This document shows positions 1,053-5,816 of a DNA stretch of 6,937 bases, one piece after another. This DNA is from a virus. Lineage: Duplodnaviria; Heunggongvirae; Uroviricota; Caudoviricetes. The first letter of the stretch is position 1. Every line of letters begins with the position of its first letter. The DNA lies in the IMG/VR virus record IMGVR_UViG_2617270978_000007; one strand, 5' to 3'. Under the pieces are notes generated by a model. That model made no database searches, had not been told where the DNA came from, and worked only from the letters and a program-made list of their open reading frames with translations. The position numbers were made by a program, and so were the translations under genes.

Positions 1053-1273
1053 GCCACACCTCCCAGACGCTTAAACATTTTTCCGGAGCAAAAGGCTATA
1101 AGCGGCATACTGATGCGGTAATTACGGCCCAGCGGTTCACAAATCACCTTCTGACATTCACGGTCAACCAGGCTGACACGTAGAACATGCCCTGCAGGCG
1201 TGGTGTACCACTGACCAGGACGAGGACAACGGAAAGTCTGATTGGTAAACCGTTTGAAAATATTCCGGATCAT
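1049..1273 (-). CDS. Hypothetical small protein (74 aa), Cys-containing
   Basis: ORF-track ORF; ATG at 1273..1271 overlaps the Rha ORF stop (ATGA). A purine-rich SD-like stretch lies upstream. Function unknown. Confidence 0.5.
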   Translation of the reverse strand: MIRNIFKRFTNQTFRCPRPGQWYTTPAGHVLRVSLVDRECQKVICEPLGRNYRISMPLIAFCSGKMFKRLGGVA

Positions 1274-2418
1274 TTGCGCCCCCTTACCTCTGAAGGGTTC
1301 AGCGACAAATTTATGAGACTGGCCAGTAGCGCCGCGTCGTTGATGCGGTCATACAGACTTACAGCCAGCGGGGATTCGGCTTTTGCCAACATGGGATAAA
1401 GCTGCTGCAGCCAGACCTGATGAATTGATGAAATGTAGGAATAGAGAACGCTGGCGTTATGTGCAACGTCGCTCAGTACAGAGGGATTTGAAAGCTGTTT
1501 CTCCATCTGGTTAAAGGCATTGATGTATGCCTCTTTGAACTGGGCAGCACGTTTACCCGTGAAACCCATAGCAAGAAACGCAAAGCCGTCGCGGGTTATT
1601 TGATAGCAAGGTAGTTTGCGGCCTGTGCAATCGGTGTAATCACTCACCGAAAAATTGCGGGAAGTGAATGATGCAGAGCATTCAAGCGTGCGGATCTTTT
1701 TCAGTACATCGTCATGACGTTTGGAGAAGAAGTTGGCAACAGCCAGGGATGAAGTAACAGCCTGACCATCAACGATGGCAATTTCAGGTTGAGTGAGGGT
1801 TGGGATCGTAGCCATGATGGCAGCCTCCGTTGACTGTGGAAAACTTCCACCACCGGAGCTGCGAAACTCACTGGTGGCAGACTGAACAGGGTTCGCAGTA
1901 CCGGCGTCAACGGAGACCGGCGAGCCTTTCGGCTCCCCTGCCCAGCCCACCATAATTCTGGCGTGCGTGAGCGCGGACGATAAAAAAGACGCTGGCGCGT
2001 CATATATCGCCGTTGACAATTCCGGGCTGCGACCCCCGGCACCCGCTTTATAAGGTGCCTGAGCAGTGTAACGTCCCGGAATTGCAGAATCAATATGCTG
2101 GTGGTCCTTCACACTCAACAAAATCACGCCTGAATTTCCACAAAGGACTAAAGCACTCATGCGGGTAGTCTTTGCGAAGATAGATAACGCGCTGTGTTTC
2201 TGGCTCCCAACGAATAACATGGACATAAAGCCCTCTTCCGTCACGAAACCAGCGGTTAAGTTCCTGCACAACTCGCCCCCCACAGTCAGGTAAAGTTCTC
2301 TGTGGTTACTTACAGCCAGGTGATTTGGTAATCTGCATTCATGCCGTAACAACAGGTGTTCAGCGACGCTGACCACCAGCTGTTGCGACAAACGGTTATT
2401 TGCCGTTAAACTATTCAT
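1270..2418 (-). CDS. Rha-family phage regulatory protein (382-aa ORF; the Rha domain is the C-terminal 181 aa, with an alternative internal start at 1815)
   Basis: The C-terminal half (MATIPTLTQPEIAIVDGQAVTSSLAVANFFSKRHDDVLKKIRTLE...) carries the F-x-KRH-D-x-VL-x-x-IR signature of Phage_pRha proteins. An internal ATG at 1815..1813 is preceded by GGAGG at 1824..1828. The full ORF starts at an ATG at 2418..2416 that overlaps the upstream stop (ATGA), and its N-terminal ~200 aa are low-complexity (Ala/Gly/Ser-rich) with no recognised domain. Boundaries are uncertain between 1270..1815 and 1270..2418. Confidence 0.55.
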   Translation of the reverse strand: MNSLTANNRLSQQLVVSVAEHLLLRHECRLPNHLAVSNHRELYLTVGGELCRNLTAGFVTEEGFMSMLFVGSQKHSALSIFAKTTRMSALVLCGNSGVILLSVKDHQHIDSAIPGRYTAQAPYKAGAGGRSPELSTAIYDAPASFLSSALTHARIMVGWAGEPKGSPVSVDAGTANPVQSATSEFRSSGGGSFPQSTEAAIMATIPTLTQPEIAIVDGQAVTSSLAVANFFSKRHDDVLKKIRTLECSASFTSRNFSVSDYTDCTGRKLPCYQITRDGFAFLAMGFTGKRAAQFKEAYINAFNQMEKQLSNPSVLSDVAHNASVLYSYISSIHQVWLQQLYPMLAKAESPLAVSLYDRINDAALLASLINLSLNPSEVRGRK

Positions 2419-2972
2419 GCGTTAGTTTCTCCACAACCAGAAGCAATCGACGCCACGACGCCCGGAGCTGCACACTCGCGGGCGTTACTATTTTCTGGAG
2501 CGCAGAAGATTTTGTAGACCAGTGCTGCATGCTCCTGGAGCTTCGAAATTGAGAGGTACAGCTCGTCGTTAATTGCTGTCTTCTCATGCGGTTCCACTAC
2601 ACCGTCTTCGATTGCTGAACGAATCTGTCTGGAATAACTGCCGATCTGTTCAATGACTTCCAGCAGACGCTGGTTAATATCGGCGTTGTCCACATCCTCG
2701 ACGTCAGGAAGAGACACAAAGACGCCATTTGCAGACTGCGCCACAGCGTCAGCAATGAAGTGAGTTCCACCAGCACGTTGTAAAATCATTGCCCATCCCA
2801 GCGGGAAAATCTGATCGCCATCGGCACGAAGGCGATTGAATAAAGCGTTCTCTGTTACATCCAGCCAGTCAGCGGCTTCAGCGTAACCCCCCGGCAACGC
2901 CGCGATAGTTTTTCTGACAGCTTTCACGTACCACTCAGGCTGTTTTTCTATTTTCCAGTGATGCTTACCCAC
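2415..2972 (-). CDS. CII-like / YdaT-family early regulatory protein (putative)
   Basis: ORF in the position of cII, immediately downstream of cro. Preferred start is GTG at 2972..2970 with AAGGAG SD 6 nt upstream; the ORF-track ATG at 3077 would overlap cro and has no SD. Family assignment is from recalled resemblance and gene order only. Confidence 0.6.
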   Translation of the reverse strand: MGKHHWKIEKQPEWYVKAVRKTIAALPGGYAEAADWLDVTENALFNRLRADGDQIFPLGWAMILQRAGGTHFIADAVAQSANGVFVSLPDVEDVDNADINQRLLEVIEQIGSYSRQIRSAIEDGVVEPHEKTAINDELYLSISKLQEHAALVYKIFCAPENSNARECAAPGVVASIASGCGETNA

Positions 2973-2994
2973 GGCTATCTCCTTAAAACTGTGG

Positions 2995-3243
2995 TTACTT
3001 TTCATCTGATGAATCTTTAATCTTTTGAAAAATATCTGGACGTAATTTTTCTTTTGATATGCCAGTGGTCTTTTCAATGAATATCGAAAGCTTTGCAGGG
3101 GGACGCTTTTCTCTGTTCAACCAGTTCCAGACATGTTGTTGCTTTACTAAATGACCGCTGCTGGCTGTGAGCTTCCGAGCCAATTCTGATTGACCACCAG
3201 CCAGAGCGATTGCCTCCGATAAGGCTAATTGCTCAGGTGTCAT
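2995..3243 (-). CDS. Cro-like HTH transcriptional regulator (YdaS-like)
   Basis: 82-aa ORF divergent from the repressor. ATG at 3243..3241 with AAGGAG SD 6 nt upstream. N-terminal HTH-like segment (LSEAIALAGGQSELARKLTASSGHL). Size and position match Cro. Confidence 0.75.
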   Translation of the reverse strand: MTPEQLALSEAIALAGGQSELARKLTASSGHLVKQQHVWNWLNREKRPPAKLSIFIEKTTGISKEKLRPDIFQKIKDSSDEK

Positions 3244-3378
3244 AGCTTTCTCCTTTTTTGGTAGTTAAGTTGTTACGAGCTGCAAGAATACAACATTAAC
3301 AACTTTTACCACAACTTTTAGATGTTGGAAAGCTAAAACATAAAGTTGTAACCTCATCAAAAAAGAGAGGGATATGTT
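3244..3378. promoter_or_regulatory. OR-like divergent operator/promoter region between the cro-like and cI-like genes
   Basis: 135-bp AT-rich intergenic region between divergent repressor and cro starts. It contains repeated ACAACT/AGTTGT motifs in both orientations: AAGTTGTTA 3267..3275 with its reverse complement TAACAACTT 3297..3305, and ACAACTTTTA at 3299..3308 and 3311..3320 as a direct repeat. It shares the 12-mer ACATAAAGTTGT and 9-mer ACCACAACT with the region at 4991..5025. Exact -35/-10 elements were not resolved. Confidence 0.6.
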
Positions 3379-4065
3379 GTGAAAACACTGGCAGAACGAT
3401 TAAAGATAGGTAGAGAGAAAGCTGGCATGAGCCAAGCTCAACTAGCTGAAAAAATTGGACTTTCACAACAATCTGTAGCCAAAATAGAGAATGGCGAAAC
3501 TCTACAACCGCGCAAAATTAAAGAAATTGCAAAAGTTTTAGGTGTATCACAAAAGTGGTTACAACTTGGTATTGAAGACAACGCATCCATACCTGATCTT
3601 GTTGTAAAAGAAGCAGAAAGCACCGCATTAGACCCCGATATTTTCGTAAACATTCCTGTTTTAGATGTCGAGTTATCGGCAGGTAACGGATGTCTGGCTG
3701 AAATAGTTGAATCAGCTATTGACTGGTTTCCGTTAAGAAGAGCAGATTTGAGAAAATCTGGCGTATGTGCATCTAATGCCAAGATCGTACAAATATGGGG
3801 GAACAGTTTATTACCGGTTCTCAATAATGGAGATCTTGTTGCCGTTGATATTTCTCAAACCGTTCCTATTCGTGATGGCGATCTTTATGCCGTACGAGAT
3901 GGTGTATTGCTAAGGGTTAAAATACTTATCAACTTACCTGACGGTGGCTTGATTCTTAGAAGCTTCAACAAAGATGAGTACCCAGATGAAATACTCACCT
4001 TTGAAGATAGACGAGCCAGAATTCATGTTATAGGTAGGGTATTCTGGTCATCGCGAACTTGGTAA
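3379..4065 (+). CDS. CI-like prophage repressor (XRE-type HTH N-terminal domain + LexA/S24 peptidase-like autocleavage domain)
   Basis: 228-aa ORF, GTG start at 3379 with GAGGGA SD-like sequence 7 nt upstream. N-terminal HTH (MSQAQLAEKIGLSQQSVAKIENGE). An Ala-Gly candidate cleavage site (LSAGNG), a GNSLLP segment with the candidate catalytic Ser and a downstream Lys (LLRVKIL) match the Ser/Lys dyad arrangement of LexA and lambda CI. Confidence 0.9.
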   Translation: MKTLAERLKIGREKAGMSQAQLAEKIGLSQQSVAKIENGETLQPRKIKEIAKVLGVSQKWLQLGIEDNASIPDLVVKEAESTALDPDIFVNIPVLDVELSAGNGCLAEIVESAIDWFPLRRADLRKSGVCASNAKIVQIWGNSLLPVLNNGDLVAVDISQTVPIRDGDLYAVRDGVLLRVKILINLPDGGLILRSFNKDEYPDEILTFEDRRARIHVIGRVFWSSRTW

Positions 4066-4938
4066 TGCATCGAAAAGCATTTCTTCAGAAATAATTTTAA
4101 GTTTTGCACCATTATCATCCCTATAAGATATAGCCTTTTCGATCTTCCTTCCGTGACTAGAGAATTTCCAATCACGGGAGGAAAGCGTCCCAATTACTAA
4201 AAAATCCAACTTTTGAGTAATTCCACTACTGATGTTCCCACCAGCATTTTTAATCAAATTTTCAACTACGGCTCTCTTTCCTGCAACAAAAGTGCCTGTA
4301 AGACAATAGGTTTTACCCTCTAACTCTATCGAAGCCCCTACATCAATAGGCAGCCTGGTCGCCAAACCATCCACCACCCCACTTTCCAAGTCACATCCTG
4401 TGAAGTCTACTAATGCCTTATGTAGAGTTAAACTCTCATCTTCAGTAATAACACCATCTTTAAGAATTTCCTTTACAAGTGCATAAAGTTTTTTTCCTGG
4501 GTAGTTGTTCTTCAAAGCTCCATTTTGCTCAAGCCACCAATTAAGATATCTTATTTCTTCTTGAGTTAAGTTCCGATCAGCAATTAATCCTTTACATAGT
4601 CCATTAAGTAAATGGACATCTACATCCTTGGAGTAAAAATCAATTTCAGGGATATCAAGAATTTCCCTCTGTATTTGGAGAAGGCTATTTTTAAGGTCAT
4701 CACGTTCTTCTGATGTGATTATTCCATCCGCAAGAATATCCGACACCCGAGCAGATAGACTTTTTATAACTCCATTATTGATAATCTGCTTTGCTTCAAG
4801 TAACCATGTATCTAAGTAAAGAACCTCCTCTTCACGGACAACTCCATCTGCAATGATTCCATCAATGATGCTAATCAAGTTAGCAAATAACTTGTCCCGG
4901 TTCTGTGTGTAATTAAAAGCGTAAAGCGCGTCTTCCAT
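4048..4938 (-). CDS. TerB-like repeat protein with C-terminal BRCT domain (296 aa); accessory (moron) gene
   Basis: ATG at 4938..4936 with GGAGG at 4943..4947 (MEDALYAFNYTQNRD...); the ORF-track start at 4968 lacks an SD. Four ~35-aa repeats carry the motif (I/L)ADG-x-(I/V)-x-x-EE (IADGVVREEE, LADGIITSEE, IADRNLTQEE, LKDGVITEDE), resembling TerB-type domains. The C-terminal ~85 aa (GKTYCLTGTFVAGKRAVVENLIKNAGGNISSGITQKLDFLVIGTLSS...AKLKIISEEMLFDAL) match the BRCT pattern of NAD-ligase C-termini. The stop at 4048..4050 overlaps the repressor 3' end by 18 bp. Confidence 0.8.
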   Translation of the reverse strand: MEDALYAFNYTQNRDKLFANLISIIDGIIADGVVREEEVLYLDTWLLEAKQIINNGVIKSLSARVSDILADGIITSEERDDLKNSLLQIQREILDIPEIDFYSKDVDVHLLNGLCKGLIADRNLTQEEIRYLNWWLEQNGALKNNYPGKKLYALVKEILKDGVITEDESLTLHKALVDFTGCDLESGVVDGLATRLPIDVGASIELEGKTYCLTGTFVAGKRAVVENLIKNAGGNISSGITQKLDFLVIGTLSSRDWKFSSHGRKIEKAISYRDDNGAKLKIISEEMLFDALPSSR

Positions 4939-4990
4939 ACAACCTCCTTTTTTTGATAATCCTTGCACTCCTTGGCTACTCGTTCAAACC

Positions 4991-5037
4991 ACATAAAGTT
5001 GTTGGCAACATTCAAAACCACAACTAAATTACAACTT
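4991..5037 (+). promoter_or_regulatory. OL-like operator region with predicted rightward early promoter (-35 TTGGCA 5002..5007, 17-bp spacer, -10 TAAATT 5025..5030)
   Basis: Shares ACATAAAGTTGT (4991..5002, identical to 3338..3349) and ACCACAACT (5017..5025, identical to 3308..3316) with the OR region, plus ACAACTT at 5031..5037. A perfect palindrome TGTTG-G-CAACA at 5000..5010 overlaps the candidate -35. The promoter is by eye only. Confidence 0.45.
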
Positions 5038-5121
5038 AAAGGTGTTAAGACAACGAACAGGCAGGACACCCACGAAGTAGCCGCCTGGGGCATATGAAGT
5101 CCAGGATGATTCGTTAGCAAC

Positions 5122-5145
5122 AAAAAAGCGCCCTACAGGACGCTT
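5122..5145 (-). terminator. Rho-independent terminator on the - strand (8-bp stem with one G.U pair, 4-nt loop, U-rich tail)
   Basis: The - strand RNA reads AAGCGUCC-UGUA-GGGCGCUU followed by UUUUGUU (from the + strand A-run 5122..5127). On the + strand the same stem has a C/A mismatch and no U-tract, so termination looks - strand specific. It lies about 240 nt downstream of the 144-aa gene stop and upstream of the OL region. Confidence 0.5.
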
Positions 5146-5146
5146 A

Positions 5147-5159
5147 GCTCTTTAACAAT
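5147..5159 (+). promoter_or_regulatory. boxA-like element (GCTCTTTAACAAT), candidate antitermination (nut-like) site about 120 nt downstream of the predicted early-left promoter
   Basis: GCTCTTTAACAAT at 5147..5159 matches the rrn-type boxA as recalled (GCTCTTTAACAA) and the lambda nut boxA core (CGCTCTT-A). It follows the 5126..5145 hairpin, giving a hairpin-then-boxA order like rrn leaders. Confidence 0.4.
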
Positions 5160-5381
5160 CTGGTCCCCATCAACAAGTAACTGATAACTTGAGGAGGTGT
5201 GAAATGCACAAAACAGAACCCAAAATCGTCGCGCCTAGCTACACAGATGAGTAAATTTATGAGTGGATGACAAAGAAGCTGGCAGCTATAAACCAGCTTC
5301 GTGAAGTGCTGTCTTATCGACAGGAAACAATAGACTCCTTAAAAAAACTGGATCAGGAAATCACGGTTTTATCACAGGATG

Positions 5382-5816
5382 TTACTTTAGATATTGTGCA
5401 GACAAATTAGGATCCCATTCATTTTCGTCAAAATCATCAAAGTGATGAATTTGTGATCTCCAGTCTCGATAATCTAAAAATTTCTGGGCGGTTACGCTTA
5501 TTTTATCAAGTGTGAGTTCATCCTGAATTGAAAGAAGAAGTTCATCAAATTTCATCTCATTAATCTGTTTTGGCATCCAGTGATGCTTCATCAGAATAAG
5601 GTGAACCAGAGCCTTTTTCCCATTCAACTGATTATAGGGAGTGCCGAATTTCTTCCGGTGCTCATGTAAGACAAGATCCAGAAGAGTAAGTAATGTTGCC
5701 CTTGATTCCACTTTGCTTATTTCGACTGATGACACTATCCCACTGATTTCAATGCCCCGATACTTTCCAACATTTTCACAGTGGGATTTGTACAACGTGT
5801 AGATATTACCGGACAT
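5382..5816 (-). CDS. Hypothetical protein (144 aa), orphan accessory gene antisense to the early-left direction
   Basis: ORF-track ORF; ATG at 5816..5814 preceded by AAGGAAA SD-like sequence. Acidic C-terminus (HHFDDFDENEWDPN), no obvious TM segment, no recognised domain. Flanked by direct repeats upstream (5832..5883) and a - strand terminator downstream (5122..5145). Confidence 0.62.
   Translation of the reverse strand: MSGNIYTLYKSHCENVGKYRGIEISGIVSSVEISKVESRATLLTLLDLVLHEHRKKFGTPYNQLNGKKALVHLILMKHHWMPKQINEMKFDELLLSIQDELTLDKISVTAQKFLDYRDWRSQIHHFDDFDENEWDPNLSAQYLK

Follow-up and report, generated by a model that had tools for sequence, protein, structure and literature searches.

How does a prophage keep the messages of two convergent genes apart when their coding sequences overlap and no intergenic room is left for a terminator? 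The question is raised by a 6937-base stretch of viral DNA (IMG/VR record IMGVR_UViG_2617270978_000007; hereafter the window), which is the regulatory and immunity centre of a lambdoid prophage of the SfV / mEp460 / CPS-53 type. In it, the gene of a cI-type repressor and the gene of a BRCT-domain protein run tail to tail and share the last 18 bp of their coding sequences. A first-pass annotation of the same DNA had described this overlap, seen no terminator nearby and proposed that the transcripts of either gene must read antisense into the other, which could couple the expression of the accessory gene inversely to that of the repressor. Here we propose a different answer, which we hold with modest confidence, namely that reciprocal hairpins embedded in codons define both mRNA 3′ ends and insulate the cI and BRCT genes from each other. 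The 3′-end signals would lie in the codons of the respective partner because there is no intergenic room to hold them. The following features are central to the argument:

3379..4065, + strand: cI-type repressor gene, 228 amino acids (aa; HTH_3 1.4e-15, Peptidase_S24 1.1e-14)
4048..4938, − strand: BRCT-domain gene, 296 aa; start codon ATG at 4938..4936, Shine-Dalgarno sequence (SD) AGGAGG at 4948..4943
4048..4065, both strands: convergent overlap of 18 bp, six codons per gene, in codon-on-codon register
4003..3969, − strand: hairpin 1, a 15-bp stem with a 5-nt loop in the BRCT-sense RNA, 44 nt beyond the BRCT stop and inside cI codons 198-208
4144..4184, + strand: hairpin 2 in the cI-sense RNA, 78 nt beyond the cI stop and inside BRCT codons 251-266, without a U tract
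4186..4463, + strand: candidate zone of Rho loading (rut) in the untranslated part of the cI transcript, rich in C and poor in G

The overlap is an ordinary outcome of gene abutment

The coordinates of the overlap in the first-pass annotation are exact. The cI stop TAA lies at 4063-4065 on the + strand and the BRCT stop TGA (TCA on the + strand) at 4048-4050 on the − strand, with the 3′ end of cI reading TGG TCA TCG CGA ACT TGG TAA and the minus-strand end of the BRCT gene reading TTA CCA AGT TCG CGA TGA. The last six codons of each gene are therefore shared: cI S224-W228 plus the stop are antisense to BRCT L292-R296 plus the stop, with the cI TAA opposite BRCT Leu292 (TTA) and the BRCT TGA opposite cI Ser224. 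Both overlapping open reading frames (ORFs) are genuine genes with domain matches and hundreds of homologues each, and RefSeq/PGAP annotates the identical 18-bp overlap in identical E. coli prophages. With two coding genes whose 3′ coding ends share bases in an arrangement kept in relatives, the locus is a convergent overlapping gene pair, of which 75 have been counted in E. coli K-12 (PMC4161906).

The length of the overlap is no greater than chance predicts. In-register antisense stops are provided by the cI codons TTA, CTA and TCA, which together make up 17 of 229 codons at a mean spacing of about 13 codons, so a BRCT run-on of five codons is unremarkable; the frame continues past Leu292 to the first cI serine codon that is spelled TCA. 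Among relatives of the overlapping type, the cI protein is always 228 aa long with a fixed stop, and the BRCT stop alone shifts, to whichever cI serine codon is TCA. The overlap itself is an ordinary, passive outcome of gene abutment without a spacer.

Two hairpins embedded in partner codons

The earlier observation that no hairpin plus U-tract is visible near the junction holds for canonical terminators: a consensus scan found none on the + strand of 3200-5400, and its sole minus-strand match near the junction (4016..3993) is weak and reflects a second, weak way in which the 5′ arm of hairpin 1 can pair. It does not hold for hairpins as such, since two strong and conserved ones lie 44 and 78 nt past the BRCT and cI stops, respectively. 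Folding of both strands, which the first-pass annotation had suggested as a check, is unremarkable for 271-nt stretches on either strand (z −1.1 and −1.9), so the fold signal is visible only at hairpin scale, where these two strong hairpins stand out. A further hairpin at 4053..4011 was dropped in view of the ordinary synonymous variation there.

Hairpin 1, encoded by the cI segment NKDEYPDEILTF, folds with −19.0 kcal/mol (z = −5.2; none of 200 shuffles was as stable). It is clearly a structure of the BRCT-sense RNA: with A.C mismatches in place of three to four G.U pairs, the complementary cI-sense RNA folds with no more than about −10 kcal/mol, and 89.2% of the helix cells are paired in the BRCT-sense vs. 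71.8% in the cI-sense orientation (slid controls, 36-58%). A pairwise comparison of 15 non-redundant cI genes puts the mean synonymous difference at 0.54 for the whole gene and at 0.16 for codons 199-210, the latter a value that none of 20000 column permutations reached. This dip is unique in the cI gene, in which the next lowest independent window stands at 0.45. Codons of the stem are fixed (Leu206 CTC and Glu204 GAA in 15/15, Lys198 AAA in 14/15), all four synonyms occur at the loop codon Pro202, and codons 211-228 show ordinary synonymous variation. We also redrew synonymous codons with the protein kept fixed and compared fold energies. Over 13 sequences, the observed −13.3 to −19.0 kcal/mol compare with codon-resampled values of −4.1 to −4.9 ± 2.4 kcal/mol (p ≤ 0.007 in 13/13), and hairpin 1 is the strongest outlier in a codon-resampling scan of both genes (z = −7.3). 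Its fold is much stronger than the cI protein sequence requires.

Hairpin 2, on the other side of the junction, folds with −18.9 kcal/mol and belongs to the most stable folds of its size class (45 nt) on both strands of the window. In the cI-sense RNA, −17.3 to −26.2 kcal/mol are maintained in 13/13 relatives with altered pairs, and the BRCT-sense fold drops to −12 to −15 kcal/mol in several of them. The codon-aligned 48-nt segment at this site folds with −18.3 to −28.8 kcal/mol across the 13 sequences, compared with a codon-resampled expectation of −6.0 to −7.1 ± 3.4 kcal/mol; resampling gave p ≤ 0.013 in 13/13 for the cI-sense RNA and p up to 0.09 for the BRCT-sense RNA, and the gene scan gave z of −4.2 (antisense) and −5.0 (sense). 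This fold, too, is much stronger than the encoded protein, here the BRCT protein, requires. The third-ranked antisense fold signal of the codon-resampling scan lies elsewhere, at 4615-4668 on the + strand opposite BRCT codons 91-108 (−11.7 kcal/mol, z −3.5).

Beyond hairpin 2, the cI-sense RNA is untranslated and has a C/G ratio of 2.1-3.3 over 4186..4463 in 78-nt windows (95th-99th percentile of the window), with a GC skew of −0.2 to −0.5. Rho-dependent 3′ ends of E. coli combine stable stem-loops that lack a U tract with rut sites directly after them (Dar & Sorek 2018, PMC6061677). As far as sequence features are concerned, the cI strand has this same layout, with the hairpin at 4144-4184 and the C-rich stretch at 4186-4463, and Rho dependence is predicted here on these grounds. 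What differs here is that codons of a convergent gene contain the stem-loop.

It could be argued that the overlap and both hairpins are neutral by-products of compaction, i.e., of the two proteins and their ancestry, and that diffuse, Rho-driven ends form on untranslated antisense RNA. The chance-like overlap, which drifts between 9, 15 and 18 bp, would fit this, as would the missing synonymous dip and the scarce covariation at hairpin 2 and the location of both hairpins within conserved protein motifs of relatives that all derive from one ancestor. We nevertheless consider this explanation unlikely, because codon-resampled folds reach about −4.5 to −7 kcal/mol vs. −13 to −29 kcal/mol observed in 13/13 sequences, because the synonymous dip at hairpin 1 has no equal in cI, and because of a sister lineage in which the same BRCT motif is kept and the strong fold is not.

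A natural variant with an intergenic terminator

This sister lineage (L056) carries a recombinant repressor, of which residues 1-63 (HTH) are near-identical to those of the window's cI and the S24 domain is different (47% overall). Its cI and BRCT genes do not overlap, and their 35-bp spacer (3395-3429) contains a canonical terminator, AAACCCGGTGAATTAAGCCGGGTTT plus TTTTATT, at which the BRCT message would end. The embedded hairpin 1 is absent from the L056 cI gene, and the equivalent of hairpin 2 folds with only −11 kcal/mol although the BRCT motif SSRDWCFSSHGRK is kept. For a single lineage, this fits what would be expected if the embedded hairpins replace an intergenic terminator.

The relatives compared here came mainly from viral contigs and exact-protein look-ups; a scan of genome contigs contributed one locus. 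Within this sample, intact pairs with this C-terminal domain of cI overlap without exception. The module with an overlap of 9, 15 or 18 bp occurs in about 50 loci of E. coli, Salmonella, Plesiomonas and others, and the arrangement of cI, BRCT gene and OL/PL is found across Enterobacterales. One locus labelled Pseudomonas lundensis I31 (L006) has a cI/BRCT module of enterobacterial type with a 9-bp overlap (identities of 77% and 71%), so the species label or the host range of this record looks doubtful. The stretch that was searched, 3379-5400, is 100% identical in prophages of several E. coli chromosomes; in one strain (NZ_CP180607.1), an IS3-family element sits inside the match.

Among 5426 complete E. 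coli genomes, the cI DNA is present in 72, and the BRCT gene is strictly tied to this cI type in all of them, intact or as a remnant. In 47 genomes, a cI at least 99% identical is accompanied by the BRCT gene, and a cI of 73% identity overlaps an intact BRCT gene by 9 bp. In another 24 genomes, no BRCT gene is annotated and the identity of the cI DNA is 83%. In both of the genomes that were read from this group (L003 and L005), the last 144 bp and the first 33 bp of the BRCT gene are kept around an internal deletion of 714 bp (window 4192-4905; L003 and L005 3170-3330). The deletion endpoint falls a few bases past hairpin 2, and the candidate promoter, SD, start codon and both hairpins have been retained. 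It is thus not tenable that the BRCT gene was inserted here and displaced a terminator of the repressor gene: the relatives without the gene carry a deletion remnant, and their cI stop is unchanged. Placed between cI and OL/PL, the BRCT gene is an ancestral part of the immunity cassette and not a recent insert. Some copies have a premature stop or a frameshift, and these alleles and the deletion remnant show that it is dispensable.

Repressor operators abut a predicted BRCT promoter

Whether transcription past the junction would matter depends on where it starts and what it would reach, for which the following features are needed:

2995..3243, − strand: cro-like gene, YdaS-family HTH (Pfam YdaS_toxin 7.8e-15), first gene of the rightward lytic operon; labelled transcriptional regulator in RefSeq
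3311-3325 and 3335-3349, between cI and cro: OR operators ACAACTTTTAGATGT and AAAACATAAAGTTGT, centres 24 bp apart
4988-5002 and 5031-5045, flanking PL: OL operators ACCACATAAAGTTGT and ACAACTTAAAGGTGT, matching the OR operators
5002..5030, + strand: PL (promoter scan match), −35 TTGGCA at 5002-5007 and −10 TAAATT at 5025-5030
4987..4959, − strand: candidate BRCT promoter, −35 TTGAAC at 4987..4982, 17-nt spacer, −10 AAGGAT at 4964..4959

The half-site AAGTTGT occurs seven times in the window vs. 1.44 expected (reached in 0/200 shuffles), and six of the seven copies lie in the OR and OL regions. Beside the two OR operators, which contain the repeats D4, D8 and D18 in a block that is nearly invariant in 15 relatives, there are further half-sites at 3267-3273 and 3299-3305. 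The PL sequence is TTGGCA-17-TAAATT in the window and TTGACA-17-TAAATT in almost every relative, and in L003 a + strand gene follows directly 3′ of it. The region 4988-5045 is OL/PL. Phages of other immunity become homologous to the window from 5047-5050 onward, just beyond the second OL operator. This puts the end of the immunity cassette directly behind OL and the BRCT gene inside it. A confident placement of PRM and PR was not possible from the sequence.

The candidate BRCT promoter is arranged back-to-back with PL and has an extended −10 element, TGcAAGGAT at 4967..4959 with the TG at 4967..4966. Two blocks upstream of the BRCT start are kept in 14 diverged relatives, with a variable spacer between them. 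If BRCT transcription starts about 7 nt after the −10 element, the operator at 4988-5002 spans −36 to −50, and lambda cI bound at OR2 activates PRM from a comparable position. By this analogy, the BRCT gene is predicted to be expressed in the lysogen under the control of cI. The operator that abuts the predicted promoter therefore suggests co-expression of the BRCT gene with cI, which speaks against the inverse coupling of the first-pass annotation.

That inverse coupling would follow from an absence of any termination near the junction, with colliding polymerases and a long antisense RNA setting the cI and BRCT genes against each other. Such a scenario can draw on the lack of a canonical + strand terminator in 3200-5400 and the weakness of the only minus-strand match, on the convergence of the two genes from promoters about 1.6 kb apart, and on documented collision-driven termination between convergent E. 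coli genes (10.1101/2022.10.23.513370). It seems improbable to us in the face of strong, conserved and codon-selected hairpins within 44-78 nt of both stops and of the canonical terminator that L056 has between the genes. Moreover, unchecked read-through on the minus strand would transcribe cro, which a stable lysogen could presumably not afford, and the operator at the predicted BRCT promoter would point to activation by cI rather than to an inverse relation.

How the two messages may end

If the hairpins instead define the transcript ends, the BRCT mRNA would run 44 nt past its stop codon, and hairpin 1 would serve as a terminator or as a 3′-protective hairpin with a weak U-rich tail. It would block transcription from the BRCT promoter from crossing cI antisense and then cro in sense; this would be useful because the BRCT gene is co-directional with cro, so that read-through would transcribe cro. 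In the opposite direction, the cI mRNA made from PRM would run 78 nt past its stop, be ended by Rho in the C-rich stretch and then be trimmed back to hairpin 2. Collision-assisted termination positioned by the stem-loops would be a compatible addition (10.1101/2022.10.23.513370). Mutual antisense reading, as proposed at first, would then be confined: at least 18 bases are certainly shared, and unhindered read-through is not to be expected with hairpins so soon after each stop. Given the positions of the hairpins, the mature mRNAs are probably complementary over about 216 nt (3969-4184).

Several points weigh against this interpretation. All mRNA 3′ ends are predicted ones, and neither hairpin was called as a terminator by the scan. 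For hairpin 1, the tail behind the full stem has few U: it reads (CUUU)GUUGAAGCUU, which makes for a poor U tract as long as the bottom pairs stay closed, and to be called U-rich it must include the bottom AAAG/CUUU pairs; moreover, the stem holds only 3-4 G-C pairs. Hairpin 2 lacks a U tract and shows no dip in synonymous diversity (0.54-0.64 vs. a BRCT gene mean of 0.55). Its RNAalifold consensus is weak (−4.6 kcal/mol, 8 pairs) because the relatives use different registers, and the window's own copy is equally strong on the BRCT-sense strand. The candidate BRCT promoter matches the consensus at 7/12 positions, which is below the scan threshold, and the consensus scan called no minus-strand promoter for the BRCT gene. 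Finally, the L056 control is a single lineage, and the 13 hairpin sequences share ancestry and are not independent.

The predicted 3′ overlap might itself be the regulatory element, in that the approximately 216-nt 3′ regions pair and RNase III cuts the duplex to set the cI:BRCT ratio or the level of repressor. Phage immunity regions often use antisense control, a C4 antisense RNA is present in the same window, and the mRNAs do overlap at 3969-4184 if the hairpins mark their 3′ ends. Regulation of this type is compatible with hairpin-defined ends and does not exclude them. It appears slightly less probable to us than either alternative above. A discrete small RNA with a dedicated antisense promoter, as in oop/cII, was not found: the scan showed no promoter-like sites above chance within the 3′ ends of cI or the BRCT gene, and an Rfam search at E ≤ 1 returned no family in 3200-5200, with the only whole-window matches at 1870-2058 (C4 and isrK). 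Outside the hairpins, the overlapping region shows no constraint on its sequence, as the ordinary variation of cI codons 211-228 illustrates, and L056 does without most of the complementarity.

Just as doubtful is a full RNA-level circuit, in which the reciprocal hairpins would set how far polymerases reach, hairpin 1 would gate cro against a cI-activated promoter at OL that is active in the lysogen, and the 216-nt duplex would set the cI:BRCT ratio via RNase III; if it existed, weakened termination at hairpin 1 would yield anti-cI RNA together with cro mRNA, and the accessory expression of the BRCT protein, as a binder of phospho-proteins or DNA ends, would be tied to prophage induction.

The BRCT protein

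The N-terminal 200 residues of the BRCT protein form four helix-DG-helix repeats and are followed by a C-terminal BRCT domain (PF00533; Pfam 28.8 bits vs. a cut-off of 21.3). Its earlier label as TerB could not be upheld, since the protein stays below the Pfam TerB threshold (PF05099, 24.4 bits) and its remote homologues have sub-threshold TerB matches only; the helical repeats are best described as apparently TerB-like. A full-length match is found to PHROG 3989 (1.5e-128), to which no function is assigned. The PADLOC candidate defence gene PDC-S48 is matched only in part (residues 119-251 vs. profile positions 239-377 of 411, E 2.4e-7) and not over its full length. Our literature search returned no publication on this protein family and none mentioning PDC-S48. 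The family is large, with 354 close clusters in Enterobacterales and 2857 representatives at E ≤ 0.001. A high-GC phage contig (L050 820-3894) encodes a 47%-identical homologue of 323 aa that is co-directional with a cI-like repressor gene and downstream of it, with two genes in between.

Comparison with known systems

In phage lambda, rexAB sits between cI and OL/PL in the immunity region. The BRCT gene occupies the same slot and travels with a cassette that is exchanged as an immunity unit. It resembles rexA-rexB further in being dispensable, and the L050 homologue is co-directional with the repressor, as rex is. Unlike rex, the BRCT gene of the window is inverted, converges on cI and has its own predicted promoter back-to-back with PL; being on the opposite strand, it is not co-transcribed with cI from PRM. 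The protein family is also unrelated, with its TerB-like repeats and BRCT domain, and we know of no exclusion phenotype for it.

Lambda oop RNA is a short non-coding RNA antisense to cII that has its own promoter and terminator and is involved in RNase III cleavage. The likeness to our locus is an antisense 3′-end overlap within a phage regulatory region; the difference is that two full mRNAs overlap here, with a hypothetical regulatory effect.

Bidirectional collision-type terminators between convergent E. coli genes have been described by Ju et al. 2019 (as relayed by Wang et al. 2022, 10.1101/2022.10.23.513370). The account given there shares with our locus a convergent pair without canonical terminator and a nascent-RNA stem-loop that positions the 3′ ends. 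The cases in this account use one intergenic element, whereas here two hairpins lie about 140 nt apart inside the partner ORFs, one of them clearly strand-specific.

With respect to ordinary convergent overlapping pairs, the overlap itself is identical in kind and the embedded hairpins are what is unusual. What appears new is thus a putative set of reciprocal, codon-embedded 3′ hairpins in a pair of repressor and accessory gene, a modest novelty over known themes, together with a gene in the rex slot that has a predicted PRM-like promoter at OL; the support for both is comparative and thermodynamic.

Surroundings of the locus

The remaining features of the window are the following:

1270..2418, − strand: Rha-family regulator ORF, 382 aa, lytic operon
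2415..3077, − strand: YmfL, cII-like, lytic operon
5126..5145, − strand: intrinsic terminator, AAGCGTCCTGTAGGGCGCTT then TTTTTGTTGCT
5382..5816, − strand: ECs1072-family gene, with two minus-strand terminators 3′ of it
+ strand end of this layout, + strand: yfdP operon

The two minus-strand terminators lie at 5126-5145 and 5275-5300. From its position, the former is predicted to shield OL/PL and the BRCT gene from transcription of the ECs1072-family gene. A G.U pair of this terminator corresponds to an A.C mismatch on the + strand, and it is therefore expected to halt transcription on the minus strand and to let PL transcripts pass; the same strand-specific G.U device is present in hairpin 1.

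The first small gene after PL (5204-5410, + strand; PHROG 1744, 68 aa, SD GAGGAGG, ATG at 5204) has an in-frame TAA at 5252-5254 in the window and resumes with an ATG at 5267; it is intact in phage vB_EcoM-689R6 (L059 1958..2164). On the lytic side, a C4 antisense RNA at 1870..1957 (− strand; Rfam 78.8 bits vs. a gathering score of 45) and isrK at 1982..2058 (− strand; 58.7 bits vs. 50) both fall inside the 382-aa Rha-family ORF, beneath its Pfam Phage_ASH match (aa 117-212). This region looks like the c4/antirepressor immunity layer of P1-type phages, and the ORF is probably over-called at its 5′ end.

Meaning of the arrangement

The overlap alone matters little, as tail-to-tail overlaps are common. 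What the locus offers is an accessory gene packed into an immunity cassette without intergenic space, for which 3′-end signals may be located in the codons of the partner. The hairpin in cI is a clean and testable case of synonymous-site selection in a phage repressor gene, and it likely acts as a safeguard against read-through into cro. Beyond this prophage, a widespread family of proteins with TerB-like repeats and a BRCT domain in the position of rex would be a candidate for an exclusion or defence function that is expressed in the lysogen under the control of the repressor.

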